From positions 5,284 through 69,283 of the IMG/VR virus record IMGVR_UViG_3300006802_000094: a DNA stretch of 64,000 nucleotides; one strand, written 5' to 3'. The notes under the pieces were generated by a model that saw nothing but the letters and a program-made list of their open reading frames with translations, was not told the origin of the DNA and did not search any database. Every line of letters begins with the position of its first letter. Positions within the stretch are counted from its first letter, which is position 1. Position numbers and translations under genes: made by a program. Origin of the DNA: a virus. This document shows positions 899 through 43,942 of this stretch, piece after piece.

Positions 899-934
899 AT
901 AAAAAAAAAGCCAGAGTTTTAAAACTCTGGCTTT
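899..934 (-). terminator. intrinsic terminator closing the non-coding operon
   Basis: Perfect inverted repeat AAAGCCAGAGTTTT/AAAACTCTGGCTTT followed by a long U tract on the minus strand. Confidence 0.85.
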
Positions 935-988
935 AGGGCTGAATTCGGTATTCAGACATCCACCACCCTTAAAAGGGAAATAAAAAAA

Positions 989-1211
989 TTACAGTAGGAT
1001 GTTGGGGATACCCTACATGATTATCTACTTCCCTTATAGTAGTCATTGTAACTTTGTGATTACAACATTAACTTTGTTAGCCATTTCTTATAGTTACCAA
1101 CAATTAGATTATGCCTCTAATTAATCCCTTACTTTATAGACTATAACACCTTTTAACAAAGTATCAAAATTTTAGTGTAACGTATTGTGTGACCAATAGC
1201 TTCATCTGTAA
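989..1211 (-). ncRNA. candidate ~220-nt structured ncRNA
   Basis: Nested helices: TTACAG 989-994/CTGTAA 1206-1211; ACTTTGTTA 1071-1079/TAACAAAGT 1154-1162; TTATAGT 1088-1094/ACTATAA 1140-1146; AATTAGA 1102-1108/TCTAATT 1116-1122; plus side hairpins. No ORF in the track. Confidence 0.55.
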
Positions 1212-1350
1212 AGATTATTATTAGTTAAACTTGGTTAGAGTTTTTCTAACAACACAGGTTATTTTAAAAAAGATTTTTTGATATTAGGTAACCTTAAACC
1301 TAAACGTAATCTCTCATTTTATAGTGTGAGTTTACGTAGTGAACACTTTG

Positions 1351-1422
1351 AGCGGATGGGTGAGACTTGAACTCCCAACTCCTAACTGGATGTTAGGTAT
1401 TTTACTATTAAACTACACCCGC
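1351..1422 (-). tRNA. tRNA-Gly(UCC), atypical (A33, bulged A in T-stem, no encoded CCA)
   Basis: Minus strand GCGGGUG...CCUAA-CAUCCAG-UUAGG...GGGAG-UUCAAGU-CUCACC-CAUCCGC-U; GCG acceptor start and U73 fit Gly. Confidence 0.75.
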
Positions 1423-1428
1423 TTGTAA

Positions 1429-1491
1429 AAAAGGAAGGTTATTTTTTAAAGTTACATAGTTCCAATATATATTGTGTAACTCCTTCCTTTT
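1429..1491 (-). ncRNA. stem-loop RNA related to the Ro-associated repeat at 11887-11945
   Basis: AAAAGGAAGG/CCTTCCTTTT closing stem with inner AGTTACA/TGTAACT stem; both arms align with the 11887-11945 element. Confidence 0.5.
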
Positions 1492-1499
1492 GTGTATAA

Positions 1500-1531
1500 C
1501 AAATATATAAAAAGTATTTTAAAAAGACAAC
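1500..1531 (-). promoter_or_regulatory. Bacteroidota-type sigmaA promoter driving the ncRNA/tRNA operon
   Basis: Minus strand GTTG-N20-TATATTTG. Confidence 0.6.
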
Positions 1532-1578: not shown

Positions 1579-4500
1579 CTATCTATTCGAAGAATTAATT
1601 TGCCAAAGTTTTACTACTCTTTCGGCTTCTGAAAGTAAATTTCTTTTTTTATCTAAAAAAGAATTATTATTTAGTTTTGTATTAGTCTCATTATATATAA
1701 TATCTCTAACTTTATTAGAATTTTCATTTATACTATCTAAGTTAGATGATGTAACAACACTAAATTTATCAACCCAATCTTTTCCACTTATCAAAAAGTG
1801 TGAAAAATTTTCTCTATTAATTTTTTTAATATTATTTAATTTATCTAGGTACTCAAAAATAAATTTTCTATTTTCAACAACATCACCATTCACTTTTTCG
1901 ATTTCATTTTCTTTTAATTTTTCTATGGATTCTATAAAATATTTTTTTAAAATAAAATCTTTTTGTATATCAACAATTTCTTCTGAAACTGTATTCATGT
2001 TTATATCATTATCATACATAAAATCAGTATCAGATTCGTTAATAGTTTCTTTGTCTTTTTCATTAGTTAACTTTTGGTAATACTCATCTCCCATCCTATC
2101 TTTAAACCATGGATTAATATCATAATCTGGGTAATAATAGGAATAGTCATTAAGTTCTAGACAATCCCCCTTTTTACCATAACAATCATCAAAGGAATAT
2201 TCTTCCTCCATAAAAATATTAAATATATTATTTAAATTTTCTGTATCAAAATCATAAAGTATGTCTTCTAGATGATGGTCAGCGTAATCTGGATGATATT
2301 CGAATCGATTTATATTATCCCAAGCATCATCATCTTGTACCCAATTTTTTAAATCATCTTCTATTACATAATATAGTTTACCATTACGATATTCTAGTTT
2401 ACCATCATAATCAAAGTGTTCTTCTATATTATTTTTAATATCTTTTGTAATATCACTATAAAACTTATCGTGTGCCGCATCTGAATTTGCCCACCTAATA
2501 TAATGTTTTATGTTATCAATATCTTCTTCATATTTATAAATTAATTCTTCTTCTTCCTCATCTAATGGTTTATTATATAATAATCTTTCCGCTGTTTCTT
2601 TGTCGACATCTAAAACTTTGATTATTAAATCCCAACTAGCATCATCTAAGTCATCTAAAAAATTACTATGTAATTCATCGAATCCATATAAATCATCACC
2701 AAAAAAATCCTCGCTACATAAATATTTATCTACCAATTGCCTATCATCTTTTACAAATAATTTTTGTAAATCGTCACAATCAAAAAACTTAGTTACTGGA
2801 AGTGGTTTTTTTGTATTCTGTAAATAACGTACCAATAATGGTATAAAATAACTTATGTGTTTTGGAGCACCAACTAACTTTAACATATTACGATTTATAT
2901 TGTTTTTAGGGTCTTTATCCCAATATTCAAATATTTTTTTTACTAAACTTTCTGGAAATGTAGTGGTTATTACATCTTTTTCTTCATCAGAAGTCCCAGT
3001 TGGGAAATTCCATACTCCCCACGGATATAACGATAATTGTTCCTCATTAAGTTTTCTTCTAATTGTAGTAACCGCTTCTGGATATTTAGATTTCACAATT
3101 TCACTATTTTTATCGTCATAATCAACTTGGTCTAAAACATGTCTCATAGCATTTAAAGCTGACATTCTTTTATCATTTGAATCTAAAATTACCCATGGTG
3201 CACCACTGTGTGACGTATCTTTAAACACTCTTTCTTTATAGTCTGTATATTCATCCCATTTTTCTCTAGAAGCTTCATCGTTGGGTGAGTATTTCCAGTA
3301 TTTTAGTGGTGATTGTTGTCTAATAGTAAATCTTTGTTCTTGTTTTCCTTGTGTGATTGATAACCAAAATTTAATCAATATTACCCCTTTACCTAATAAA
3401 CTTTTTTCAAAGGGAACAACGTCTCTCATAAATTCTTCATATTCTTCTTTAGAAGAATATCCCATAACTGGTTCTACTATACCTCTGTTATACCAACTTC
3501 TATCAAAAAAAGTTATTTTACCAGGTTCTATATATTTTTCATATCTCTGAAACCAATTTTTCTTTTCTTCGTCTGTTGGGATTCCTAATGCAATAACATT
3601 AAAATACTTTGGGTCTAAATATTCTGTCATCTTTCCAATAGTGGAACCTTTTCCAGCTGTATCTCTTCCTTCAAAAATTATAACTAAAGGTATATTATTC
3701 TTTTTAACCCATTCTTGTAATTTTAATAACTCTATCTGTAATAACTCTTTTTCTGTTTTAAATATTTTCCTAGGTATTTTAGATTTTTCTTCTTCTACCT
3801 CATCATAATAATCAACACCCTGTGGTGTTTCCCCCTGTAATAATTTTTTTTCGTATTTAGCTCTTTTAGGTAATGAAGTGTTTAAACGACTAAGGTAATC
3901 TATAACTATTTCTGTTTTATCACCACTTTTTAAAAGTTTATTTTCCAAACCTCTCAACATAGTGGGGAAATCAATTAAATCTATGTAATCAGAATCTTTT
4001 AGTTGGTCAACCAATTTAGATACTTCTTCATCATATATCTCATTTTCATCTAATGTATCTTGTAATTGTTGTAAATATTGGTTTAGTTCATCTGGTGTAT
4101 CACTTTTTTGTTCTGGTTTTTTAAATAAATTACTTAAAATATCAAAAAAACCTTCATTAATTATTTTTTGATGTTCATTAAGTTTTTTATTTTTGTCTGG
4201 AAACATTTGATTTATATCAAATATAAGGTCATTTGGGTGGTATTCATCCACATAAACATCATTATAAGAATCAAACTCATATTTTTTATCATATGCATAT
4301 TCAAAATCTCTGTCTGATTCACCTACCTCTTCACTATGTATAATTTCAGCCAAACCGTATTCAGGTCCTTCCAAACACATAATATAATGATGCAAATTGT
4401 ATTCTTCAACACAACCAAGTTCAATTGGATTTGTAGTACTATATATTGTTTCTTCTATTATAGGGTGGTAATATTGTTCTAATTCAAGTTCTTCCCATTC

Positions 4501-4929
4501 ATTACATTCACAATCTCCCATACCTCCACCAAAAACATCTTCAAGTTCATCTTCTGAACAAGCTCTATATTCATCACCGTGTTCATCCCAAATAATACCA
4601 TCTACACACGCACAAGAATCACCAGATTCCTCACCCACACCATCTACACAATCATCATAAAACCATTCACTTTCTATGTCACCATAAACACGAACTCTAC
4701 TAAGATATACTTTTGGTAAAACCCATTCTTCAACATTATCACGGTTACCAATTAAATAGTTGTATTCATATATGAAATTCATTTCACTACTTAAATAAGA
4801 AGGTAGTTTAAAATATCTCATTAATGTTTCTCCAAATTTATTAATAGATGGTTGTTTAATTAATGCAAGAGTAGTTTGCATAATTCTTTTAGCGTTAGTA
4901 GTTAAATTTAATTTTTGAGGTGACATCAT
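1579..4929 (-). CDS. ppk2: multi-domain protein with central polyphosphate kinase 2 (PPK2) domain
   Basis: PPK2 motifs FEGRDTAGKG, FDRSWYNRGIVEPVMG, KFWLSIT, WKYSPND, APWVILDSNDKR (about 3060-3780), flanked by unrelated acidic domains. Confidence 0.9.
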   Translation of the reverse strand: MMSPQKLNLTTNAKRIMQTTLALIKQPSINKFGETLMRYFKLPSYLSSEMNFIYEYNYLIGNRDNVEEWVLPKVYLSRVRVYGDIESEWFYDDCVDGVGEESGDSCACVDGIIWDEHGDEYRACSEDELEDVFGGGMGDCECNEWEELELEQYYHPIIEETIYSTTNPIELGCVEEYNLHHYIMCLEGPEYGLAEIIHSEEVGESDRDFEYAYDKKYEFDSYNDVYVDEYHPNDLIFDINQMFPDKNKKLNEHQKIINEGFFDILSNLFKKPEQKSDTPDELNQYLQQLQDTLDENEIYDEEVSKLVDQLKDSDYIDLIDFPTMLRGLENKLLKSGDKTEIVIDYLSRLNTSLPKRAKYEKKLLQGETPQGVDYYDEVEEEKSKIPRKIFKTEKELLQIELLKLQEWVKKNNIPLVIIFEGRDTAGKGSTIGKMTEYLDPKYFNVIALGIPTDEEKKNWFQRYEKYIEPGKITFFDRSWYNRGIVEPVMGYSSKEEYEEFMRDVVPFEKSLLGKGVILIKFWLSITQGKQEQRFTIRQQSPLKYWKYSPNDEASREKWDEYTDYKERVFKDTSHSGAPWVILDSNDKRMSALNAMRHVLDQVDYDDKNSEIVKSKYPEAVTTIRRKLNEEQLSLYPWGVWNFPTGTSDEEKDVITTTFPESLVKKIFEYWDKDPKNNINRNMLKLVGAPKHISYFIPLLVRYLQNTKKPLPVTKFFDCDDLQKLFVKDDRQLVDKYLCSEDFFGDDLYGFDELHSNFLDDLDDASWDLIIKVLDVDKETAERLLYNKPLDEEEEELIYKYEEDIDNIKHYIRWANSDAAHDKFYSDITKDIKNNIEEHFDYDGKLEYRNGKLYYVIEDDLKNWVQDDDAWDNINRFEYHPDYADHHLEDILYDFDTENLNNIFNIFMEEEYSFDDCYGKKGDCLELNDYSYYYPDYDINPWFKDRMGDEYYQKLTNEKDKETINESDTDFMYDNDINMNTVSEEIVDIQKDFILKKYFIESIEKLKENEIEKVNGDVVENRKFIFEYLDKLNNIKKINRENFSHFLISGKDWVDKFSVVTSSNLDSINENSNKVRDIIYNETNTKLNNNSFLDKKRNLLSEAERVVKLWQINSSNR

Positions 4930-5178: not shown

Positions 5179-5700
5179 CTAAACATTTGTGGGTTTTTCG
5201 GTGGAATTATATAAATCTTTGGTTTGATTTCTTTTATTCTGTATTTCTTCGGCTAGTTTTTTATTTCTATTCACCACTTCTTTTCTTCTTCTTTCTAATT
5301 CTTCTAAGTGATTTTTTTTATCTTCTTCTTCTTGTAACTTTTTACTTATAACATCTATTCTATCTAAAGCCATTTTAGTCATATACATATTGTTTTTAAG
5401 TAATTCTACAATGTCTTCCATAGTTGGTTCCCTATGTGTAACTGTTTGATAATATAGTAAAGACTGAATAGCTTCTTGTGGGTTACTAAAATCTCTATTA
5501 GGTATTAAATATTCTTTACCTATTACAAAGGTAGGAAACACAGCACTCCTAGTGAGAGATTTAACATATTCCCATTCTTTTTTAAACTCTTTAAAATTTC
5601 TTTCAGTATACTCAACATTAGCTGCTTCTAATTCTTGTTTCATTTTTGCACAATACCCACAAGTAGGCATTGTATACATTATAATTTCTAATTTTTCCAT
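5179..5700 (-). CDS. glutaredoxin/NrdH-like protein with C-terminal coiled coil
   Basis: YTMPTCGYCAKMK and AVFPTFVI motifs. Confidence 0.8.
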   Translation of the reverse strand: MEKLEIIMYTMPTCGYCAKMKQELEAANVEYTERNFKEFKKEWEYVKSLTRSAVFPTFVIGKEYLIPNRDFSNPQEAIQSLLYYQTVTHREPTMEDIVELLKNNMYMTKMALDRIDVISKKLQEEEDKKNHLEELERRRKEVVNRNKKLAEEIQNKRNQTKDLYNSTEKPTNV

Positions 5701-6594: not shown

Positions 6595-7197
6595 TTATTC
6601 TAGTATTTTATCTACCAATCCGTATTCTAAACATTTTTTAGCGTCCCACCATAAATCATGCTTTAATATTTCATCCAATTCTTTTTGTGGTACTTTAGTA
6701 TACTCTTGATATAAATTTTTTATCATATCCATCAATTTAGTATTATTTTCCATATCGTCAAGTAAATCGGAATATTTTCCCCAACTAGTAGCACTTAATT
6801 GATGGATTAACATATAAGCGTGTTTGTGAATATATCTTTCTTTACCAACTACACTAATCATTGTGCCAGCACTAGCAGCACACCCTTCTATAATTGTAAT
6901 TACATCACATTTAGTATTTCTAATTGTATCTAAAGTTGATAAACCAGCAAAAATACTACCTCCGTAAGAATTGATGTGTAAATAAATTTTTGGTAACTCT
7001 ACTCCTAATTTTAAACTACTAATTTGTAATTCTTTATCTAATTCATTTATTTGTTTATTCAACTCTAACATCTTACTCCTTTCTACCTCAGAATAAAAAT
7101 AAATGTGATTGTTTACCGTTGTAATTTCGTTATTACTATCACTAGATGAATTTGATTTATCATCTTGTTTTACACCCCAAATTGGTTCTTTATTCAT
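6595..7197 (-). CDS. ClpP-like protease (divergent, phage type)
   Basis: HINSYGGS, GCAASAGT (Ser), IHQ (His), HDLWW (Asp). Confidence 0.85.
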   Translation of the reverse strand: MNKEPIWGVKQDDKSNSSSDSNNEITTVNNHIYFYSEVERSKMLELNKQINELDKELQISSLKLGVELPKIYLHINSYGGSIFAGLSTLDTIRNTKCDVITIIEGCAASAGTMISVVGKERYIHKHAYMLIHQLSATSWGKYSDLLDDMENNTKLMDMIKNLYQEYTKVPQKELDEILKHDLWWDAKKCLEYGLVDKILE

Positions 7198-7198
7198 T

Positions 7199-7867
7199 TT
7201 AATTTCTTTTTTGTATTATCTCATCAATTATTCCATATTCTAAAGCTTGGTCTGCATCTAACCATAAATCTCTTTGTGCATCCTTTTCAACTCTTTTGGT
7301 TGTTTTACCACAAGCTTTCGCCAATATATCAAATAAAATTTTATTGGTTTTTTCCCATTCATCCATAGTAATTCGAGCGTCTTGGATGTTACCAACAGCA
7401 CCACCACTAGATTGATGCAACATTGTTTTACTATATCTCAAAGAGTTTCTTTTACCTTTTGTCCCTACTGCTAATAATACTGAACCCATAGAAGCTGCCA
7501 TACCAGTATTTAATGTCCTAATATCACATTTAACATATTCCATAACATCAACAATCCCCAAACCAGCTTTTACCGAACCACCAGGTGAATCTATATGTAA
7601 TGTAATATCATCGTCATTAATCGTATCTAAATACATTATTTGTGCTTGAAGAATTTGTGCAGTTATATCCATTATTGGTCCAGATAACCATATTATTCTT
7701 TCCATCATAAGTCTAGAAAATATATCAATTTGTGTGGCTCTCATTTCTCTTTCCTCTAAAATATAGGGTGTAAGTGAATTTTGATAGTCCCATAAAGTGG
7801 TAGACGAAATTGGGTTCTTCATACTTCTACTATATAAACTAAAATCTTTGATTAGGTCATTTTTCAT
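7199..7867 (-). CDS. clpP: ATP-dependent Clp protease proteolytic subunit
   Basis: DIFSRLMMERII, DSPGGSV, GMAASMGS, LHQ, RDLWL; likely start MKNDLIKDF at 7867. Confidence 0.95.
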   Translation of the reverse strand: MKNDLIKDFSLYSRSMKNPISSTTLWDYQNSLTPYILEEREMRATQIDIFSRLMMERIIWLSGPIMDITAQILQAQIMYLDTINDDDITLHIDSPGGSVKAGLGIVDVMEYVKCDIRTLNTGMAASMGSVLLAVGTKGKRNSLRYSKTMLHQSSGGAVGNIQDARITMDEWEKTNKILFDILAKACGKTTKRVEKDAQRDLWLDADQALEYGIIDEIIQKRN

Positions 7868-9607: not shown

Positions 9608-10513
9608 TTAATTTATCAAAATTAATTTTTTTGTACAATTAGGACATGTAAATTTTTCTTCAAATCGCTTATCAAAAACAACTTCATTTTCACAAACACA
9701 TTCTTTTATTTCAAAGTCTTCTTTATTTGGTGATTCTTGTGGTGTGTAATTACAAACCAAAGTTTTATCCATTATGTAAGCATATCTGTGTTTTTGTGTT
9801 CTAGGTAACCAAACTCCTTTAGCATCCTTAGTCGTACCTCTATAATTTTTTTTGAAAGTGCCATCACCAATATAAAGAAAAAAGTCACTTTTTGGTGTGG
9901 ATAATCCATAATAAGTGAAATTACACACCTGATAGATACTACCACTATGTCTAGAATTATCAGCTAAAGTAATTACCGCTCTAACATTTTCTTTCTTCAA
10001 TAATCTAATTGATGTACCTAACAAAAATGATGTCGCATTAGTTCCATTTAAGTTTGGTAAAACACATAGTCTAGATAATTCTAAAACTGTTTGGTCAGTA
10101 TTGGGTAATCCAAACCAACCTTTCAGTGCAACATTACCTTGTGGATTTGAGAATGTTGTCACACCTAAAATTTCTTCATCTCCTTTTTTAAATAATCCAA
10201 AAGAAAACTTAGCAAAGAACTTTGCGTCAGCCAAATAATGATATTTTTTTATAAATTCGTAAGCCTGACTTTTATCTATTCTTTTAATTAAATAATCTTT
10301 TTTCTTAAAATTATTATTATGTCTAGGTTTTTCTTTAAATACGGGAAAATTACCATGTGGTACGACATATTCTTTATCTGTTGAATTATTTTTAATTTTA
10401 TAACCACCGTCTACCTTTCCTAAATATATCCCAACATTATTAGAATTGGTTATAAATAAGTCACCATCTTTTAATTTAGATAATGTGGTAGATTCTTTGC
10501 TAAAATTTGTCAT
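9608..10513 (-). CDS. Mom-like (GNAT-fold) DNA modification protein
   Basis: FIKKYHYL, LELSRLC, VITLAD...HSGSIYQVCNFTYYG, KHRY motifs resemble the Mu Mom family. Confidence 0.7.
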   Translation of the reverse strand: MTNFSKESTTLSKLKDGDLFITNSNNVGIYLGKVDGGYKIKNNSTDKEYVVPHGNFPVFKEKPRHNNNFKKKDYLIKRIDKSQAYEFIKKYHYLADAKFFAKFSFGLFKKGDEEILGVTTFSNPQGNVALKGWFGLPNTDQTVLELSRLCVLPNLNGTNATSFLLGTSIRLLKKENVRAVITLADNSRHSGSIYQVCNFTYYGLSTPKSDFFLYIGDGTFKKNYRGTTKDAKGVWLPRTQKHRYAYIMDKTLVCNYTPQESPNKEDFEIKECVCENEVVFDKRFEEKFTCPNCTKKLILIN

Positions 10514-10551: not shown

Positions 10552-11466
10552 TTAAATCAATAAAGTATTAGTACTCTGATATTTTATTAGAGCGAGTTCT
10601 TTTTTCTTGGCCTCTAACATCACATCAACGTCTACACCATAGGTATTAATATATTCAGAGATATAATCTGAATGTGCTTGTGGTTTAATAGTATCATTAT
10701 TCTCATGTAATGATTTACTCTCAGAGTAGTGAACTACAGGTTTGATATCACCCCAAGTGCTTGCAGCAAGTTTAAGTGCTTCTTCTTCCGTCAGACCACC
10801 TGTATTAAATTTATGGTGGTGATAATCAAACACTATTGGTATGCCTATCCTTTCGTGTATGTACATCAAATCCTTAACTGAATACATTGACTCTTTATCA
10901 TCATTTTCTACAGTCAAACGTGTTTGTACGGATTTAGGTAATCTTTCAAAGTTCTTACAGAACCTATCCATAGCAGAAATCTTATCACCATACACACCAT
11001 TACAATGTATATTAATTTTATTATATGGTGTTCTAGATAAACCAATTAAATCAAATATTTCACCGTGGTTTGATAAATCTTTTATTGTGTTTTCAACAAC
11101 ATTATCGTTGGGTGATACTAAAACATTAAATGGACCTGGATGGAATGTAATTCTATGTCCATATTTTTTAACCAAATGACCCAAACCACTTAACAAGTGT
11201 TTAATCCTAATGTAGTGAGGTAAATCAGATAATTTATATTCTGATGCCCAAGGAAAAATATCCGAACTCATTCTAAAAAATTTAATACCATTATTTTCAT
11301 TCCATTGTATAATTTTTATTAAATCTCTGACATTTAAAATTGATAACTCAGAAGCATAATCGATACCTTTACTAATAAATGTTCGTTTAATCATAGACCT
11401 ATTGGTTGTGACTTTGGGTTTTTCTTTAGATAAAGACATATTAATACAAGCGTATCCTAAATTCAT
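10552..11466 (-). CDS. uvsE: UV damage endonuclease UvsE/UVDE
   Basis: LGYACIN, FFRMSSDIFP, TFHPGPF, LTVENDDK, PIVFDYHHH, HYSES, QAHSD, MLEAKKKE; likely start 11466. Confidence 0.95.
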   Translation of the reverse strand: MNLGYACINMSLSKEKPKVTTNRSMIKRTFISKGIDYASELSILNVRDLIKIIQWNENNGIKFFRMSSDIFPWASEYKLSDLPHYIRIKHLLSGLGHLVKKYGHRITFHPGPFNVLVSPNDNVVENTIKDLSNHGEIFDLIGLSRTPYNKINIHCNGVYGDKISAMDRFCKNFERLPKSVQTRLTVENDDKESMYSVKDLMYIHERIGIPIVFDYHHHKFNTGGLTEEEALKLAASTWGDIKPVVHYSESKSLHENNDTIKPQAHSDYISEYINTYGVDVDVMLEAKKKELALIKYQSTNTLLI

Positions 11467-11534
11467 ATCGAAATAATTAAATTTTAAGTTTTGAACTACC
11501 CAAACCAATAGTATTGGTTAGGTATTTGAGATTT

Positions 11535-11566
11535 CAAATATAAAGAATATTTATTTAAAAAACAAA
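11535..11566 (-). promoter_or_regulatory. Bacteroidota-type promoter for uvsE, overlapping a divergent ATATTTAT motif (11547-11554, plus)
   Basis: TTTG-N20-TATATTTG. Confidence 0.7.
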
Positions 11567-11820
11567 TGAAAGATAGAATAAAAAAATTATTAAGAGAATT
11601 TAGTATTGACGAACTAGATAGAAAAACATATAAAGATGGTCAATTATCTTTAGAATATGTAGATGCTTACGATTACCCAAAATATGTTATTTATTATGAT
11701 ACAGAAGAACTAGTAGATGGTTATGGTGATGAAACAAATATAGTAGTCGCTGAATTAGATTCTAGATTTTTTGATGAAAGAATGGCTAGAATAATATTAC
11801 AATACCTAATAACTAGGTAA
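11566..11820 (+). CDS. hypothetical protein, putative internal virion protein
   Basis: N-terminus MKDRIKKLLRE; ATATTTAT upstream. Confidence 0.65.
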   Translation: MKDRIKKLLREFSIDELDRKTYKDGQLSLEYVDAYDYPKYVIYYDTEELVDGYGDETNIVVAELDSRFFDERMARIILQYLITR

Positions 11821-11848
11821 ACTATTCAACTAAAATTTAGATATGTTC

Positions 11849-11878
11849 AAAAAAAAAACCCCAATATGGGGTTTTTTT
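11849..11878. terminator. bidirectional intrinsic terminator
   Basis: A10-CCCCA-AT-ATGGGG-T7 between convergent units. Confidence 0.85.
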
Positions 11879-11883
11879 ACATT

Positions 11884-11945
11884 GTCAGGAAGGTATTGAT
11901 TGTTGCGTTATCATTTAATTTAAAGTAGATTGCTGAAACCTTCCT
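11884..11945 (-). ncRNA. Ro-associated stem-loop RNA, short unit
   Basis: AGGAAGGU-UUCAGCAA-loop-ACCUUCCU-GAC on the minus strand. Confidence 0.55.
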
Positions 11946-11984
11946 TATTTATATAAACGTGAACTTATCACGGAATTTTTAAAA

Positions 11985-12149
11985 TCTGATGAGTAGTCAG
12001 AATATGGGTGAACTCTTTTTTAATTTAGGACTTCTGAGACTAAAAATCCCTTTTTTATTTTTTCAACAAGGTGGGGGAATATTTCCACCTCTCTCTTTCA
12101 TAGTTATATTTAACTTTTGCTGAAAGTATTCTTTGGTCTACTCATCAGA
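11985..12149 (-). ncRNA. Ro-associated stem-loop RNA, long unit (Y-RNA-like candidate)
   Basis: 12-bp closing stem (11985-11996/12138-12149), inner AGAATA/TATTCT stem, UUUCAGCAA at 12117-12125, internal hairpin AGGTGG/CCACCT. Confidence 0.6.
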
Positions 12150-13560
12150 CCGTTATTGGTTCGTATCGAAGTGAATCGACAGTCTCCATCATCATGTTAT
12201 AAGGTGTGAAGTTATCACAAGTTAAAACATTTTTCATGATTGAAGGTGAGAATCCAGATACTAGTACTGTCCCCATTTCATTAAATGAAGTTGGGAAATT
12301 ATCGTTTCTAGCATTTATGTTCCAGTAAACGATATCTGGTGTTTTATACCCAGCATTCTCAAACATCTCTTTAATCATTTGTTGTGCGGTTGGGTTCCAT
12401 TTACCTAACACATTAGCTGAATCGAATTCCATGTCTGAAAGAATCAGAACTTTAGTTGGCATCTCATGTTGAGACACTTGATGCTTGACTGCTTGTTCTA
12501 AAATTAATTCAAAAGTAGATGCTAAGTTTGTATTCATACCCCAATCAGCTCTTTTTAGTTGTTGATATCTATCTTTTAAATCACCATTAAGTACTTGAAA
12601 TGTTGGTCTCTCTGAGAACGTAATAAACGTATCTTTGAACTGACCTACATTTCTTTCCGAAATATATAGACCTAGTGATATTGCAACATCCATACAAGAA
12701 ACATTAGGATTGTTACCCGCTGAACATACCATAGAACCCGAAACATCTACAACTGGTAGTATTCTTTCTTCAGAACCTTCCATATAGTTAGGTAAAGCTT
12801 TCCACTGTTCACTCGCAATTTCGGAGTCCCCAAACTTAAGTGATTTAGTGATATCATAAGGATATACCGCTCCAGCGTTAATTTTCACAGTACCCTTTTT
12901 AAGAGAATTAATATATTCTCTATATCTTTCACCGTCATTTTTGTGGAAAGCTTTTTGGTATCTAGATGCGGCTAAGGATGGTAATTTAGAATAATCGATA
13001 TTCTCCCATTTTTTAGAACACATACTAGTTTCAACCACATTAGTCAAACTAACTAATAATTTACGATACTCTTTAGGTGTCATATTCAAATACTTTCTAA
13101 TTGTATTTGCCTTAACACCTTTTCTTGGCATCCACTTTGCACATAAACCATCTTTGTTGTTTAAAGCTGATTTAATTAATTCAAGTGGTTCCAACCAACA
13201 GTTGTCTGTACCTACAAGAGTTAGGACATCGTCCCATCTTCCATATTCACTAATTAAGTGAACATTTTTTTTAAGTACTTCACTGTGGTTTTTACATAAC
13301 CAACCTAAAATATCTCTAAAAATTTGTCTTTCACCAGCACCTTCTCTCACATCTCTTGCCCAGAATAAAATTTTCATAGCAATTAGAGCGTCTTCATTAT
13401 ATGCTTTTGAGAACTTTGAAATAAGTTTTTTCTTATTTATCCCTCTCATCGCACCTATCTGAAAAAATAGGTTCACACAGTGGTTCAAAGAAGATGAATT
13501 AGTTGCCATCCCATTTTCGGTTACCGTGTCTTGTGTCTGAAGTGCGTCTCTCAAATTCAT
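12145..13560 (-). CDS. Ro60/TROVE-like protein with vWA domain (DUF2828 family)
   Basis: TENG start, RDVREGAGER, EYGRWDD, AKWMPR, MIDAS-like DVSGSM, WGMNTN, ILSDMEFD, IVYWN, VSGFSP. Confidence 0.85.
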   Translation of the reverse strand: MNLRDALQTQDTVTENGMATNSSSLNHCVNLFFQIGAMRGINKKKLISKFSKAYNEDALIAMKILFWARDVREGAGERQIFRDILGWLCKNHSEVLKKNVHLISEYGRWDDVLTLVGTDNCWLEPLELIKSALNNKDGLCAKWMPRKGVKANTIRKYLNMTPKEYRKLLVSLTNVVETSMCSKKWENIDYSKLPSLAASRYQKAFHKNDGERYREYINSLKKGTVKINAGAVYPYDITKSLKFGDSEIASEQWKALPNYMEGSEERILPVVDVSGSMVCSAGNNPNVSCMDVAISLGLYISERNVGQFKDTFITFSERPTFQVLNGDLKDRYQQLKRADWGMNTNLASTFELILEQAVKHQVSQHEMPTKVLILSDMEFDSANVLGKWNPTAQQMIKEMFENAGYKTPDIVYWNINARNDNFPTSFNEMGTVLVSGFSPSIMKNVLTCDNFTPYNMMMETVDSLRYEPITV

Positions 13561-13636
13561 GATAAATAGGTTAATTTAATTTTTGGTTAGTATTATAAAT
13601 ATTAAATAAATTAGTAAAAGTGACTAACGTTGTTCA

Positions 13637-13665
13637 AGTATATTAAAAAAAATCACTCCTGTCAA
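13637..13665 (-). promoter_or_regulatory. sigma70-consensus promoter upstream of the Ro-like gene
   Basis: TTGACA-N17-TATACT; a TATTTATA motif also lies at 13594-13601. Confidence 0.65.
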
Positions 13666-13694
13666 GCCCCAAGACGTAATTTTTTTATTTTTTT

Positions 13695-13913
13695 TTAATT
13701 TCCAATTTTTTCCATAAATAAATTAAGGTTTTCCAACTTGTCGTTGGCCGAAGCTAACTTATCTAAAGCTATCATCGCCTCCTCTACTTGTTGTGGATGT
13801 TCACCAATACCAACACTATTACACATGTAATTGTTTAGTGTAAATTCTGCTTCTGCTTTTTCAGCTTCACATTGTGCTTTTAAAGCTAAGTACATTAAAT
13901 CTTTCCCTTTCAT
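13695..13913 (-). CDS. conserved phage hypothetical protein
   Basis: VGIGEHPQ motif, helical. Confidence 0.7.
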   Translation of the reverse strand: MKGKDLMYLALKAQCEAEKAEAEFTLNNYMCNSVGIGEHPQQVEEAMIALDKLASANDKLENLNLFMEKIGN

Positions 13914-13957
13914 TTTTTTTAATTTGTTTTTAATTGTGAATTTTTAATATGTTGTAA

Positions 13958-14560
13958 TTAGTGAAATGAAACAAAACCATTTTCTGATGCAACTTTAAAA
14001 GCTTCTTTCCAATCATCATATTTTGCAAAAAACCATTCCATATCTCTAATATCATATTCTTTGTATGGGTGTACTTTTAAAAACCACATATCTATGTTTT
14101 CTTTGATTTTACCTTCATTATTTATAAAATCATTATATAGTTTTTTACTTAACTTAGGTCCTATTATACCATCTGAATCTGAAAAATTAATTAATTCTGA
14201 AAATGGTGGACTTTCTGGTTTACCAATTATTGATTCATCTTCTAATGACCAAACTTCTTGAGCTCCACCTGAGAAACCAGCAGCTAAAGCTAAATCATCT
14301 CTCCATTCATTATACCCACTATAACTACCAGCCCTAAATGAATTTTCACCCAAATTACGTGGTACCAAATACCAACCATTTTCTAAACCTTCTAAATGTT
14401 TTGGCCAATTACTATTTTTTTTGTCTATGTAATAAAGATAGTTATTTGGATATTGTTTATCCCATTCATCAAATTCCTTATTAAAAGGTTTAACACCTTT
14501 TGGTACTTTATTGGGTGGTATATGTTCTACGTTTGAATAATATGATATATCTAATCCCAT
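13958..14560 (-). CDS. phage hypothetical protein (MGLD family)
   Basis: MGLDI start, GSYSGYNEWR, LINFSDSDG. Confidence 0.7.
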   Translation of the reverse strand: MGLDISYYSNVEHIPPNKVPKGVKPFNKEFDEWDKQYPNNYLYYIDKKNSNWPKHLEGLENGWYLVPRNLGENSFRAGSYSGYNEWRDDLALAAGFSGGAQEVWSLEDESIIGKPESPPFSELINFSDSDGIIGPKLSKKLYNDFINNEGKIKENIDMWFLKVHPYKEYDIRDMEWFFAKYDDWKEAFKVASENGFVSFH

Positions 14561-14832
14561 TATAACATTAATTTTTTAATCTTTTCTACACCCTCTTCAA
14601 TTTCATCAAAATCATTATCTGGTGCCAAATAAATTTTACTTTTTTCGTCATGATTCACGATACAAGCTGTTGGTATATATTGTGTGTTAGCTTCTTTACT
14701 AACTTTATCCCACTCTTTATCAAATCTTTCAATATCTCTGACTAAAAATTTAATGCCTTCTTTTTCTAATAAATTTTTCATTTTAGTACACCAAGGACAC
14801 CCTTCTTCTGAATATATTAATAATGTTTTCAT
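14560..14832 (-). CDS. glutaredoxin-like protein
   Basis: GCPWC, YIPT. Confidence 0.85.
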   Translation of the reverse strand: MKTLLIYSEEGCPWCTKMKNLLEKEGIKFLVRDIERFDKEWDKVSKEANTQYIPTACIVNHDEKSKIYLAPDNDFDEIEEGVEKIKKLML

Positions 14833-14838
14833 ATAATA

Positions 14839-15150
14839 TTAATTTAAATAGTAGTTAATTTTATCTTTGTAAAAACTTTTTTCTCGCAAACCAACAATTC
14901 TTTCTACTTCAACACCTTCTTTGTATATTATAATAGTTGGTATACTCCTTACTTGATGTTGAGACGAAGCTTCTGCATTATCAGTAACATTAACTTTACC
15001 TATTATTGCTTTATCAGCGAAATCATTTTCCAATTCTTCTATAGTTGGTGTTAACATCCTACATGGTCCGCACCATTCAGCCCAAAAATCAACTAGAACA
15101 ACACGATTTTCTTTAATTGTGCTTTCTAATGTGTTATCGTTTAATTCCAT
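14839..15150 (-). CDS. trxA: thioredoxin
   Basis: VDFWAEWCGPCR, VRSIPT. Confidence 0.95.
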   Translation of the reverse strand: MELNDNTLESTIKENRVVLVDFWAEWCGPCRMLTPTIEELENDFADKAIIGKVNVTDNAEASSQHQVRSIPTIIIYKEGVEVERIVGLREKSFYKDKINYYLN

Positions 15151-15152
15151 AA

Positions 15153-15428
15153 TTATAAATATTGTTTTAATTCTAACAAAGCCTCATCTGGTGTATTAAA
15201 ATCTCTACCAGCAGCTATATAAATTCTATTTTTTTTATCTTCTACCAAAATAGTAGGTGTATACATAATGTTAGAATTAGTTTTTAATTCTTCTTTTCTT
15301 ATTTCTTCCCAAAGTTCTTTGTTTTTTAATACTTCAATAACTTTGTATTTTATATTTTCTTGTGTCAGTAGGTCTTTTAAAGCGACACAAGTTTTACATT
15401 CCCATTGACTAAATAATGTTATTCTCAT
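15153..15428 (-). CDS. glutaredoxin-like protein
   Basis: CKTC, YTPT; paralog of 14560..14832 and 5179..5700. Confidence 0.75.
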   Translation of the reverse strand: MRITLFSQWECKTCVALKDLLTQENIKYKVIEVLKNKELWEEIRKEELKTNSNIMYTPTILVEDKKNRIYIAAGRDFNTPDEALLELKQYL

Positions 15429-15431
15429 ATT

Positions 15432-16511
15432 TTAAACTTCAATTGTTCTAAATTTATTTTCTGCTTTTAATAAAGTATCATAAATAATACCACATAATAA
15501 GTATGGATTAGCATTACTAGCTGGTCTTCTATCTTCCAAATAACCCTTCCAACCATTTTCTATTGTGCTTATAGGTATTCTTATACTAGCACCTCTATCA
15601 CTTACACCATAACTAAATTTATCAATGTGTTGGGTTTCATGTAATCCAGTTAATCTTTTTTCATTCCCATCACCATATAATTTAATATGGTTTTTATGGT
15701 TTTTACCAAACTCTTCACAAATAGATTCAAACATTTCTTTTCCACCAACTTCTCTAGTTAAATCACTAGAAAAATTAACATGCAACCCAGAACCATTCCA
15801 GTCTCCTTTAATTGGTTTTGGATTAAAATTAACTTTTAAATCATATTTTTCTGTTAATCTTATTAACAAAAATCTAGATAACCATAATTCATCACTAGCT
15901 TTTTTAGCTCCTTCTGAAAATACTTGGTACTCCCACTGTCCTACCATCACTTCAGCATTAACACCAGTAATATTAAGATTAGCTTCCAAACAAACTTGTA
16001 AATGTTCTTCTATAATATCACGACCTACAACATTTTCAGAACCCACACCACAATAATATTGTCCTTGTGGTTTAGGATAACCTTCACTTGGGAAACCCAA
16101 AGGTTTGTTATTTTTTATTGTTAAAGTATATTCTTGTTCAAAACCAAACCAATATTGTTCATCATCAATTAAATTATGTCTATAATTTGTTTCATGTGGT
16201 GAACCATCAGCATTTAAAACTTCACACATAACTAAATAACCATCTAATCGTTGTGGGTCCATTATAACATGAACTGGTTTTAATAAACAATCTGAATTAT
16301 TACCATCAGCTTGTTTAGTTGATGAACCGTCAAATGACCATTGAGGTAATTCTTCGGGACAAGGAATTACTCTTCCATTATAAGCCAATGTTCTCTTAGT
16401 TTGCATTTTGGGGTCACTCATTGGGTCATAATCCCATATTTTGGTTTTACTCCTTAATTTTTGTGTTGGTTGGTAACCATCTAACCAAATATACTCTAGT
16501 TTTACTTTCAT
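15432..16511 (-). CDS. glnII: glutamine synthetase type II
   Basis: KLEYIWLDG, WSFDGSST, GFEQEY, NAEVMVGQWEYQ, GDWNGSGLH, DRGASIRIP, YLEDRRPASNANPY. Confidence 0.95.
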   Translation of the reverse strand: MKVKLEYIWLDGYQPTQKLRSKTKIWDYDPMSDPKMQTKRTLAYNGRVIPCPEELPQWSFDGSSTKQADGNNSDCLLKPVHVIMDPQRLDGYLVMCEVLNADGSPHETNYRHNLIDDEQYWFGFEQEYTLTIKNNKPLGFPSEGYPKPQGQYYCGVGSENVVGRDIIEEHLQVCLEANLNITGVNAEVMVGQWEYQVFSEGAKKASDELWLSRFLLIRLTEKYDLKVNFNPKPIKGDWNGSGLHVNFSSDLTREVGGKEMFESICEEFGKNHKNHIKLYGDGNEKRLTGLHETQHIDKFSYGVSDRGASIRIPISTIENGWKGYLEDRRPASNANPYLLCGIIYDTLLKAENKFRTIEV

Positions 16512-33316: not shown

Positions 33317-34486
33317 TTACCTACCAACATCTTTTAAATATTTTATTTTCATATTATCCCAAGATATTCCTATAGCGTCCCAATAAAATAATGTTTCTGG
33401 TTTTAATCTATTTTGTTTGTGTAAAGTTTCGTACCTCCTAACTGCTTTTTTCTTCCACCACTTTTCAGTATATGGAATATCTTCTTCAAACTTTAACTTT
33501 AATTTAAGTTCATCCTCACTTATTTCTCCTCTAAGAAACTCATTTCCATTTTCATACATCATAGCCAGATAAACACCTCTTTTAAATCCGTGGTCATAAT
33601 CAGAAGCTTTAATACCACAATGTTTAAACACTTTATTTATGATATTTTGTTTTGGTCCTGTAGCTTTTATAGCTTTTTTATGTTCATCTGGATAATTTTC
33701 TTTTAACCATTGGTTCCAAGGTAAATAAACACTATCATCTGGTTTTAATCTTACTTTACCTGTAGTTTCACCCATAGTTTTAAAATGTGGTATCCCATTA
33801 TACATTGAGTTTATACCATATAAAGAAGTTGTACCAACAGCTATTAATTTGTTACCATATTTACTTTCCCAAGATTCTCTAATCGTTTTACAAGTTGTTA
33901 AAGAGGCAACTAACTTTCCCATTAACATATTAAACCCACCTGGTTGTGTACTACATATTGTAGTTGCTATAGCAGTACAATTTAATTTACCTTGGTCAAA
34001 TTTATTTACTTTATCCCAACCAATGTATTCATCTCTTACTTTTATACTAGTAACATCAGAACCTAAACATATTAATCCTAAGACTTTTTCTGTTTTTTTG
34101 TCTTTAACCCAAAATTTCATGTTTCTACCTGGATTTGCGACCCATTCCATAGTATGTATTAACTTTCTATAGTTAACCCATTCAGTAACACCTTTACCTT
34201 CAGTTGCCATAACAACATAAGGTTCTAAATCCATTATCTCTTTAATAGTTAGGTCTAAATCATTTATGTCTGTAGGCTCCCATAAATTATTTTTATAAGT
34301 TAATAATTTTTTTTTAATTTTTGACATCTTATCACCCTTATTCATTTCTTGCCACTTTTTATATAAGGTTTGTTCTTCGACTGTCATATCCTTCAACATA
34401 TCAAGATTTTCAATTAATTTTTCTTTCATTAATTCAAAATCAAAAACTTCTTTTTCCTCACCAAATAAATTTAATTGTTCTTCCAT
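33317..34486 (-). CDS. DUF4338/DruA-like protein
   Basis: NPGRN.KF.V.D, LGSD...RD.YIGW, GFNMLMGKLVA, TTSLYG..SMYNG. Confidence 0.6.
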   Translation of the reverse strand: MEEQLNLFGEEKEVFDFELMKEKLIENLDMLKDMTVEEQTLYKKWQEMNKGDKMSKIKKKLLTYKNNLWEPTDINDLDLTIKEIMDLEPYVVMATEGKGVTEWVNYRKLIHTMEWVANPGRNMKFWVKDKKTEKVLGLICLGSDVTSIKVRDEYIGWDKVNKFDQGKLNCTAIATTICSTQPGGFNMLMGKLVASLTTCKTIRESWESKYGNKLIAVGTTSLYGINSMYNGIPHFKTMGETTGKVRLKPDDSVYLPWNQWLKENYPDEHKKAIKATGPKQNIINKVFKHCGIKASDYDHGFKRGVYLAMMYENGNEFLRGEISEDELKLKLKFEEDIPYTEKWWKKKAVRRYETLHKQNRLKPETLFYWDAIGISWDNMKIKYLKDVGR

Positions 34487-43147: not shown

Positions 43148-43942
43148 TTACAAGATATAATCCAACAAACCACCACTTTCATTTCTTAATTTACGAAGTG
43201 CTTTTTCTTTAATTTGTCTAACTCTTTCTTTTGTTAAGTTAAAATCTTCACCAATGTCTGATAGAGTTCTTGGTGTACCACTTAATCCAAAATAATCAGC
43301 AATTATTGACATTTCTCTATCATCTAAAACATCCATTATTTTTTTAAGTTCAGTTTTTAACTGGTCTTCAGTGTTGAAAACTTCTTCTGGATTTTGAGCA
43401 TCGTCATTTTCAATCACAGTTAAAAGTGTGTCACCTTCGTCATTTATTGGACTGTCTATATTAGTAGTATATGGTAAGTTTTGTAACTTACTTTCCATAA
43501 CATATCCAACTTTCTCAGTCATTTTTTTAGCCTTTTGTACTTCTTGTACAATATTAGCTGGTAGACGAATTGTTCTAGCGTGTTCATTTAAACACTGAAA
43601 TATTGATTGTTTAACCCACCATACAGCGTAAGAAATAAATCTATTACCCTTACTCCAATCAAAATTTCTAATCGCTTTTAATAACCCATGATTACCTTCA
43701 GCAATTAAGTCTGGTAAATCAACTCCTTGATTTTGGTAGTCTCTAGCTACACTTATAACAAATCTTAAGTTACCTAACATAAGTTCTTTTTCTATTTGTT
43801 CTTTTTGTTCGTTAGTTGGGTTATTTAACATTATCTCAGATAACATTTTTTCTCTGTTAACTGTCAAAACGTCAATTTTTCTAACATCTTTCAAGTAATG
43901 AGAAATTTCATCCTGATTAATATAAGGTCCTGTTTTTTTCAT
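43148..43942 (-). CDS. RpoD/SigA-like RNA polymerase sigma factor
   Basis: YLKDV, NLRFVISVA, DLIAEGN.GL, RFISYAVWW, RTIRLP, LTKERVRQIKEKALRKLR. Confidence 0.95.
   Translation of the reverse strand: MKKTGPYINQDEISHYLKDVRKIDVLTVNREKMLSEIMLNNPTNEQKEQIEKELMLGNLRFVISVARDYQNQGVDLPDLIAEGNHGLLKAIRNFDWSKGNRFISYAVWWVKQSIFQCLNEHARTIRLPANIVQEVQKAKKMTEKVGYVMESKLQNLPYTTNIDSPINDEGDTLLTVIENDDAQNPEEVFNTEDQLKTELKKIMDVLDDREMSIIADYFGLSGTPRTLSDIGEDFNLTKERVRQIKEKALRKLRNESGGLLDYIL

Follow-up and report, generated by a model that had tools for sequence, protein, structure and literature searches.

Genomic context of the tRNA-Gly unit

We have analysed a window of 64,000 nucleotides of viral DNA, positions 5,284 to 69,283 of IMG/VR record IMGVR_UViG_3300006802_000094, and describe a non-coding unit near its start in which a glycine tRNA gene is followed by a lineage-specific insert of ~370 nt. 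Our finding that the stretch behind the tRNA is present as RNA-library sequence in four studies is new. The window makes up most of the record, which has 69,283 bases and a G+C content of 24-33%. CheckV rated it 22% complete, which fits a jumbo phage of ~300 kb.

Zero open reading frames (ORFs) of at least 60 amino acids (aa) occur between the stop of a 1116-aa ORF (1579) and a small basic ORF ending at 890, and the only ORFs in this gap are of 25-41 aa. The gap had already been noticed in an earlier, sequence-only reading of this DNA, and its interpretation as a single non-coding unit that holds a tRNA plus further RNA is supported. That reading had proposed an undescribed non-coding RNA (ncRNA) operon. 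The non-coding unit with its tRNA stands, as does the existence of the post-tRNA stretch as RNA, whereas the conserved, structured RNA of 220 nt does not.

Along the minus strand, the predicted cassette would run from a promoter through a leader hairpin, tRNA-Gly(UCC), a variable slot and a two-hairpin 3' element to a terminator. The promoter-like site (1500-1531) reads TTGTCT-17-TATATT, with a sigma-70-like match at 1502-1530 that scored 9/12 in a consensus scan, and overlaps TTG-N20-TATATTTG. The leader hairpin (1429-1491, inverted repeat I21) has an outer helix of 10 bp, an inner helix of 7 bp, an 18-nt apical loop and an 11-nt internal loop on its 3' side, and ends in a U-run 6 nt ahead of the tRNA (1351-1422). 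The insert occupies ~978-1346 and contains a nested rod that had been proposed at 989-1211. The 3' element (935-977) consists of hairpin 1 (HP1, CCCU/AGGG, 966-977), the linker UGGUGGAUGU (956-965), hairpin 2 (HP2, CUGAAU-ACCGA-AUUCAG, 939-955) and a CCCU (935-938). The intrinsic terminator (899-934) is a perfect 14+14 palindrome with a U-run behind it (inverted repeat I2). It had been called strong, and the scan agrees, with 12 pairs (5 of them G-C) at 907-934 ahead of the T-run and 4 terminator-like sites vs 0.6 expected in 3 kb.

The tRNA-Gly named in the sequence-only reading was recovered by Rfam RF00005 with 43 bits at a gathering score of 29 and was missed by ARAGORN. In the Rfam alignment, the anticodon loop CAUCCAG gives the anticodon UCC (Gly) with A at position 33, and the T stem is bulged. 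U33 is almost always present in tRNAs. The gene also has G1-C72, C2-G71, G3-C70 and U73, which we take to be glycine identity elements.

Recovery of the post-tRNA stretch from RNA libraries

According to a run index, 17 runs recorded as RNA, from 13 studies, contain 0.40-0.51 of the sampled words from 880-1600. Four runs from four studies, labelled as estuary, freshwater or marine metagenome, were compared with positions 400-2200. Each held one short contig that lies wholly within 940-1337 and shows 0 differences: 392 nt at 946-1337 (X1), 379 nt at 957-1335 (X2), 372 nt at 940-1311 (X3), and 309 of 313 nt at 992-1300 (X14). No loose ends were present where the four contigs stop. Since the contigs continue beyond the insert and take in HP1 and HP2, excision of the insert does not account for the RNA. 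A single internal promoter-like site was found, at 1140-1167, and it cannot be the only start, since the contigs reach upstream of it. The contigs of two studies end at 1335 and 1337, which is 14-16 nt past the end of the tRNA, whereas DNA assemblies continue for kilobases; this hints, though weakly, at a real 5' end at that distance from the tRNA. Two 34-nt pieces of foreign contigs (88% likeness) aside, the four runs cover neither the tRNA, the leader nor the flanking genes, and the uncovered parts were counted as no evidence. Because the sequence is present in the RNA libraries of several independent studies, the ends, strand and timing of the RNA can be studied directly in existing raw data.

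Variation downstream of the tRNA among related phages

The region occurs at 99-100% identity in three viral contigs and four metagenome contigs. Distant relatives were located by a pattern for the 3' half of the tRNA and by alignment of the peptidase domain encoded downstream (80 loci). Among their handles, L035, the L019 record and G005 refer to the same relative, as do L046 and G006, and L047 and G007.

In the window type, 417 nt separate the end of the tRNA from the terminator, as against 44-47 nt in L031, L035/L019, L038 and L039. The slot is empty in four lineages (L031, L035/L019, L038/L039 and L047), where the tRNA is followed by the 3' element across a gap of 4-7 nt, and the flanking genes are syntenic in G005. 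In L047, whose peptidase domain is 66% identical, tRNA-Gly stands directly before the 3' element and there is no leader hairpin. L046 (peptidase domain 79% identical) has the leader, the tRNA, a different block of ~115 nt and the 3' element. Its slot domain, at 2049-2160 on the plus strand of a 194-kb phage record, is closed by a 12-bp helix and is without a match in Rfam, and the region 2046-2240 folds with a z-score of -3.54. The best local alignment between the two blocks has a score of 28, which was matched by 25 of 300 shuffles and is no significant similarity. The L046 block was absent from searches of G000, G005 and G007, and a search for a second copy of the window's insert in its own record returned the self match only. 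By sequence comparison, the slot has at least three states, namely empty, ~115 nt and ~370 nt. Because it is empty in four lineages and holds an unrelated domain in a fifth, the rod region is lineage-specific cargo in a conserved cassette.

Homologues of the tRNA score 41-43.5 bits in L031, L035, L046 and L047, and the L046 copy is called Gly(tcc) by ARAGORN. The loop with A33 and the bulge in the T stem are kept in L031, L035, L038 and L046. The distant L047 copy (548-620) has the loop CUACCAG, for which ARAGORN gives the anticodon ACC.

Structural conservation of the flanking elements

In the leader alignment (A3, 6 sequences), 96.1% of 102 cells are paired and 4 of the 17 pairs have changed on both sides. 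The covariation score is 0.247 vs 0.149 in shuffles, with 1 shuffle in 500 as high, and controls in which the pairing was slid along the alignment pair at 41-66%.

The last element of the unit, with its CUGAAU/AUUCAG stem, had also been picked out in the sequence-only reading, and it is both present and conserved across lineages. In these, HP1 takes the form CCC(U)-tetraloop-(A)GGG and is followed by an invariant UGGUGGA linker, HP2, CCC and the terminator; the same layout of three hairpins appears in the minimum free energy (MFE) fold of 8 of 8 lineages. A covariance model, R1, was built from four lineages and finds the other four, namely the window (26.8 bits, E 1.6e-5), L341, L047 and L321, at 26.8-40.8 bits (E 1.6e-5 to 1.3e-9). 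Within the window, it detects a single credible copy. In the model-fitted alignment A11, which was used because the MAFFT alignments A4, A8 and A9 misplace HP2, 97.1% of cells are paired and 2 pairs have changed on both sides. Covariation backs the leader hairpin and, modestly, the 3' element.

The 3' element matches no Rfam family. Its pattern has 121 matches in cellular genomes, about as many as expected by chance; 6 of them have CCC upstream and 0 have the layout or a tRNA. With a stricter pattern, 6 of 22 matches in viral contigs are real.

Three fragments of other jumbo phages carry the 3' element right behind ORFs and with no tRNA nearby (L321 663-722, L338 668-722 and L341 668-722, all on the minus strand). 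A further likeness is found in a phage tRNA-Ser(GCU) in L350 (653-742, reverse strand), in which the variable arm and the first part of the T arm agree with the opening 17 nt of the 3' element plus the CGAAUCC that comes next. The match to the 17-mer follows from the construction of the search, whereas the CGAAUCC extension does not. R1 scores this tRNA at 23.6 bits. On sequence likeness, the 3' half of a serine tRNA may be the origin of the 3' element.

The terminator is kept in L031, L035 and L046, and a different terminator-like hairpin takes its place in L047. The motif TATATTTG is found ahead of the leader in L031, L035 and L046 as well, which makes four lineages with the window. It presumably resembles the promoter consensus of Bacteroidota, and by eye its four intergenic copies have TTG or TTTG 19-21 nt upstream. 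As a general promoter word of the phage it was rejected, being not enriched in the window (11 found, 10.84 expected).

Predicted folding of the insert

Two short hairpins read from the insert, ACGUAA/UUACGU and UUAGGU/ACCUAA, are both present in the MFE fold. The nested rod at 989-1211 fared worse. Its closing helix of 6 bp appears when either the piece or the insert is folded by itself, but not in the fold of the full RNA, and in place of a rod with a central bubble, the MFE and centroid structures are multi-branched sets of short hairpins of 5-9 bp. The rod folds with a z-score of -1.45, and 16 of 200 shuffles were as good; no homologues with compensatory changes were found for it. On two of the three grounds set beforehand for giving up the rod, homologues and folding energy, the findings go against it, and on the third, absence of expression, they do not. 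The span 899-1350 (452 nt) folds with a z-score of -3.81, a value that includes the terminator and the 3' element.

Among the RNAs of the locus, only the tRNA passes the Rfam gathering score in a search of the whole window. At E<=10, positions 700-1750 give 19 matches, none of them 6S RNA, Y RNA or tmRNA and only the tRNA above threshold. The best other match was Pseudomon-1/ErsA, on the 3' element plus terminator, and it was rejected at 28.3 bits vs a gathering score of 50. A search for antisense targets within the window gave 14 matches of 13-mers vs 6.3 +/- 3.5 in shuffles (maximum 18), all of them A/T-rich 13-15-mers. The motif UAAGG, with 4 copies vs ~0.5 expected, was dropped because it had been chosen post hoc among 1024 pentamers.

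The rod had invited comparison with 6S RNA, as a decoy for RNA polymerase. The phage does encode a sigma-70 family protein (43151-43942, Pfam), and, as with 6S RNA, the stretch is found as RNA in a genome that has a sigma factor of its own. However, no 6S family matched in the Rfam search at E<=10, no fold contains a rod with a central bubble, and the RNA is ~2x the usual 6S length. Nor is it conserved in relatives, though G005 at least keeps the flanking gene order. The decoy is largely refuted by the missing match, rod and conservation, and we regard its chances as close to negligible.

Proposed expression and function of the insert RNA

The explanation that we favour, at slightly better than an even chance, is that the locus is a minus-strand cassette in which the ~370 nt of the slot and the start of the 3' element form a discrete ncRNA of ~0.4 kb, released by tRNA processing and protected at its 3' end. 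The whole unit would be transcribed from the upstream promoter, starting a few bases before the leader hairpin. RNase P and the tRNA 3'-trimming enzymes would excise the tRNA and leave a downstream RNA whose 5' end lies a few bases behind it. The 3' element and the terminator hairpin would then shield the 3' end, allowing the RNA to accumulate. The content of the slot is accessory cargo, whose own fold is unsupported. Our best guess at its role is that of a protein-binding or decoy RNA with the conserved 3' module as its handle.

A number of results weigh against this explanation. The minus strand, the processing of a tRNA precursor and the accumulation of the RNA are what we infer for the span 940-1337, because the contigs show neither strand, true ends nor level, and the plus strand of the block in fact folds better (z-score -2.66). 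Moreover, it was this same stretch that retrieved the runs, so that its standing among other phage genes cannot be read from them. The claimed promoter exists as a match, but it is of a type no commoner than chance in AT-rich DNA (18 found, 19.2 expected). The covariation score of the 3' element was reached by 25 of 500 shuffles, in an alignment fitted to the model. The cargo is without visible constraint in its fold, its single-nucleotide polymorphisms (SNPs) or its homologues. Folded alone, the insert of ~370 nt has a z-score of -0.76, with 16 of 100 shuffles as good. Nine SNP sites separate the near-identical copies of the block; 5 are unpaired and 1 keeps its pair, so that 3 of the 4 at predicted paired sites break the pair. 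No homologue was found by blastn against 50,697 phage records, G005, G006 and G007 gave only chance matches of 14-30 nt, and a 20-mer of the block occurs in only 3 near-identical records among the viral contigs and in 0 cellular genomes. The block may have been gained here or lost in the relatives.

The poor folding, the pair-breaking SNPs and the lack of a homologue in any searched collection also favour a passive spacer. This would be functionless DNA, for instance the remains of a gene or of tRNAs or a scar left by a mobile element, within a strongly transcribed tRNA unit, and its RNA would survive only through the protection given by the 3' element and terminator. The absence of the block from four related lineages and its replacement in a fifth agree with this, and its SNP density is like that of neighbouring non-coding DNA (9 in ~370 nt vs 6 in ~180 nt). 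However, a separate RNA was recovered in the libraries of four studies, and L046 keeps a different, well-folding closed domain in the identical slot, which suggests that the slot is used. The block also fits no known type of scar, having no trace of a tRNA (Rfam E<=10), no terminal repeats and no second copy. We consider a passive spacer somewhat unlikely, though still a serious contender.

Since the contigs are strandless and the plus strand folds better, the RNA could also be an mRNA that encodes very small proteins (one or several), or a plus-strand transcript for a hydrophobic 41-aa ORF (999-1124); a 25-aa ORF lies on the minus strand (969-1046). No ribosome-binding site was seen by reading before either start, no promoter-like match on the plus strand was found in 880-1000, and no terminator-like site on that strand near 1340. 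Moreover, 2 of the 4 SNPs inside the 41-aa ORF fall at first or second codon positions, and we hold a messenger to be very improbable.

A Ro60-like protein and candidate Y RNAs

The ORF at 12148-13560 on the minus strand encodes a protein with DUF2828 and DUF7788 (Pfam) and a match to phrog_850, 'RNA-binding protein'. A model of the protein built with an alignment of 40 sequences has a predicted local distance difference test score (pLDDT) of 77.7; an earlier model from 4 sequences (pLDDT 46) was unusable. All 13 of the 13 Protein Data Bank matches at E<=0.001 are Ro60/TROVE proteins, aligned over the full length of the phage protein, and they include Ro60 of Thermus phage phiLo, Deinococcus Rsr, and frog and human Ro60. 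Judged by its modelled structure, the protein is a predicted Ro60 orthologue encoded by the phage. The gene is kept in G005-G007. The family is very common, with 7978 of 8000 scored candidates matching, many of them on contigs of 150-350 kb. The gene was not found in the fragments L321, L338 and L341, records that are 4-11% complete and in which its absence is uninformative.

Directly behind the Ro60-like gene, ~290 ORF-free nt (11850-12150, minus strand) are kept in G005, G006 and G007 and end in a terminator at 11850-11878. In the RNAalifold prediction, the first bases, at the stop codon (GGUCUGA...), pair in a long stem with a stretch ~150 nt on, and double changes preserve 10 of its 53 predicted pairs. 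The predicted RNA has the architecture of a Y RNA, which makes it a Y-RNA-like candidate, and no Rfam Y RNA matched at E<=5 in 11000-15600. The Ro60-like protein and this candidate Y RNA in one genome form a tractable pair for RNA quality control in a phage.

The second module of this candidate (11888-11945, minus strand) and the leader hairpin of the tRNA unit (1429-1491) both have a GGAAGG/CCUUCC stem around ~43-45 nt. The two stems do not change together in G005, and their likeness is possibly chance.

The RNA behind tRNA-Gly could itself be a partner of the Ro60-like protein, as a modular RNA of tRNA, cargo and 3' element that binds the ring protein ~10.8 kb away. By analogy, this would join a protein that matches Ro60/TROVE in structure over its full length, and whose gene keeps its strand in G005-G007, with an RNA whose parts recall bacterial and phage Y RNAs. 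According to PMC4201824, such Y RNAs have tRNA-like domains, lie within 4 kb of the Ro60 gene and show the motif GNCGAAN0-1G in the stem bound by Ro. In HP2, the 5' strand is GUCGAA in L035, GCCGAA in L341, GUCCGAA in L338 and GUCUGAA in the window. Exact GNCGAA is present in only 2 of 8 lineages (L035 and L341), however, with the others one letter off, and no Rfam Y RNA matched the locus. RNA and gene share a strand but are ~10.8 kb apart (1351 vs 12148), and 11-20 kb apart in G005-G007, whereas YrlA is nearly always within 4 kb (PMC4201824). The tRNA stands outside the stem, unlike the YrlA layout, and a better candidate lies directly behind the Ro60-like gene. We consider such a partnership quite improbable.

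In its boldest form, the leader, tRNA-Gly and 3' element would be an expression and processing cassette of a jumbo-phage clade with a loadable ncRNA slot, the 3' element would be the handle of the Ro60-like protein, and the cargos would be effector domains of a large modular phage Y RNA. We think this unlikely. The link to Ro60 is kept as the boldest reading and not the best because HP2 matches the motif exactly in only 2 of the 8 lineages.

Comparison with known systems

To our knowledge, very few phage ncRNAs are known, and almost none come from uncultured jumbo phages. In phage T4, the stable RNAs rnaC and rnaD (species 1 and 2) of the tRNA cluster share the tRNA transcription unit and are freed by tRNA-processing enzymes. 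The RNA of our preferred explanation would likewise be a phage ncRNA in the transcription unit of a tRNA, with release by tRNA processing as the presumed step. Unlike rnaC and rnaD, it has no similarity by blastn in the phage records, is ~0.4 kb long, follows a single tRNA, and is either lacking or replaced in close relatives.

In E. coli, the 3' external transcribed spacer of glyW-cysT-leuZ, which arises by tRNA processing, is a sponge for small RNAs. It resembles the present case as RNA left behind a tRNA, with a spacer function that is known for E. coli, and differs in that the antisense search within the window found no target here. In murine gammaherpesvirus 68 (MHV68), tRNA-linked microRNA precursors are cut free by RNase Z, and in both cases a viral tRNA or tRNA-like gene would serve as promoter and processing handle for a downstream ncRNA. 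MHV68, however, is a eukaryotic virus that uses RNA polymerase III and has short hairpins as cargo. By analogy, the nearest counterparts of the RNA appear to be the tRNA-linked stable RNAs of T4 and functional tRNA spacers, and it falls into no described family. A cassette that is conserved while its content is exchanged suggests that phages have a general means of expressing and stabilising small RNAs behind a tRNA.

YrlA with Ro60/Rsr (PMC4201824, PMC7824862) is similar in that a Ro60-like protein is encoded and that a tRNA occurs with a conserved stem bearing a sequence that resembles the CGAA-type motif. The present RNA is unlike YrlA in its missing Rfam match, its layout, its distance from the gene (10.8 kb) and the separate candidate beside that gene.

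Other genes of the window

Pfam matches in the window include the auxiliary genes for a PPK2 domain, two ClpP proteins, glutaredoxin, DnaJ and glutamine synthetase. Matches to the Druantia protein DruA, to the two ClpP proteases, which are adjacent, and to a Mom-family protein lie in regions listed at 33320-34486, 6598-7867 and 9611-10513 (all on the minus strand). The 1116-aa ORF upstream of the tRNA unit (1582-4929, minus strand) has the PPK2 domain at residues 390-608. Its homologue in G005 (1342 aa; L043 704-4732) matches only outside the PPK2 part, and an ORF with an HD domain (L043 4778-5362) lies between this homologue and the tRNA.

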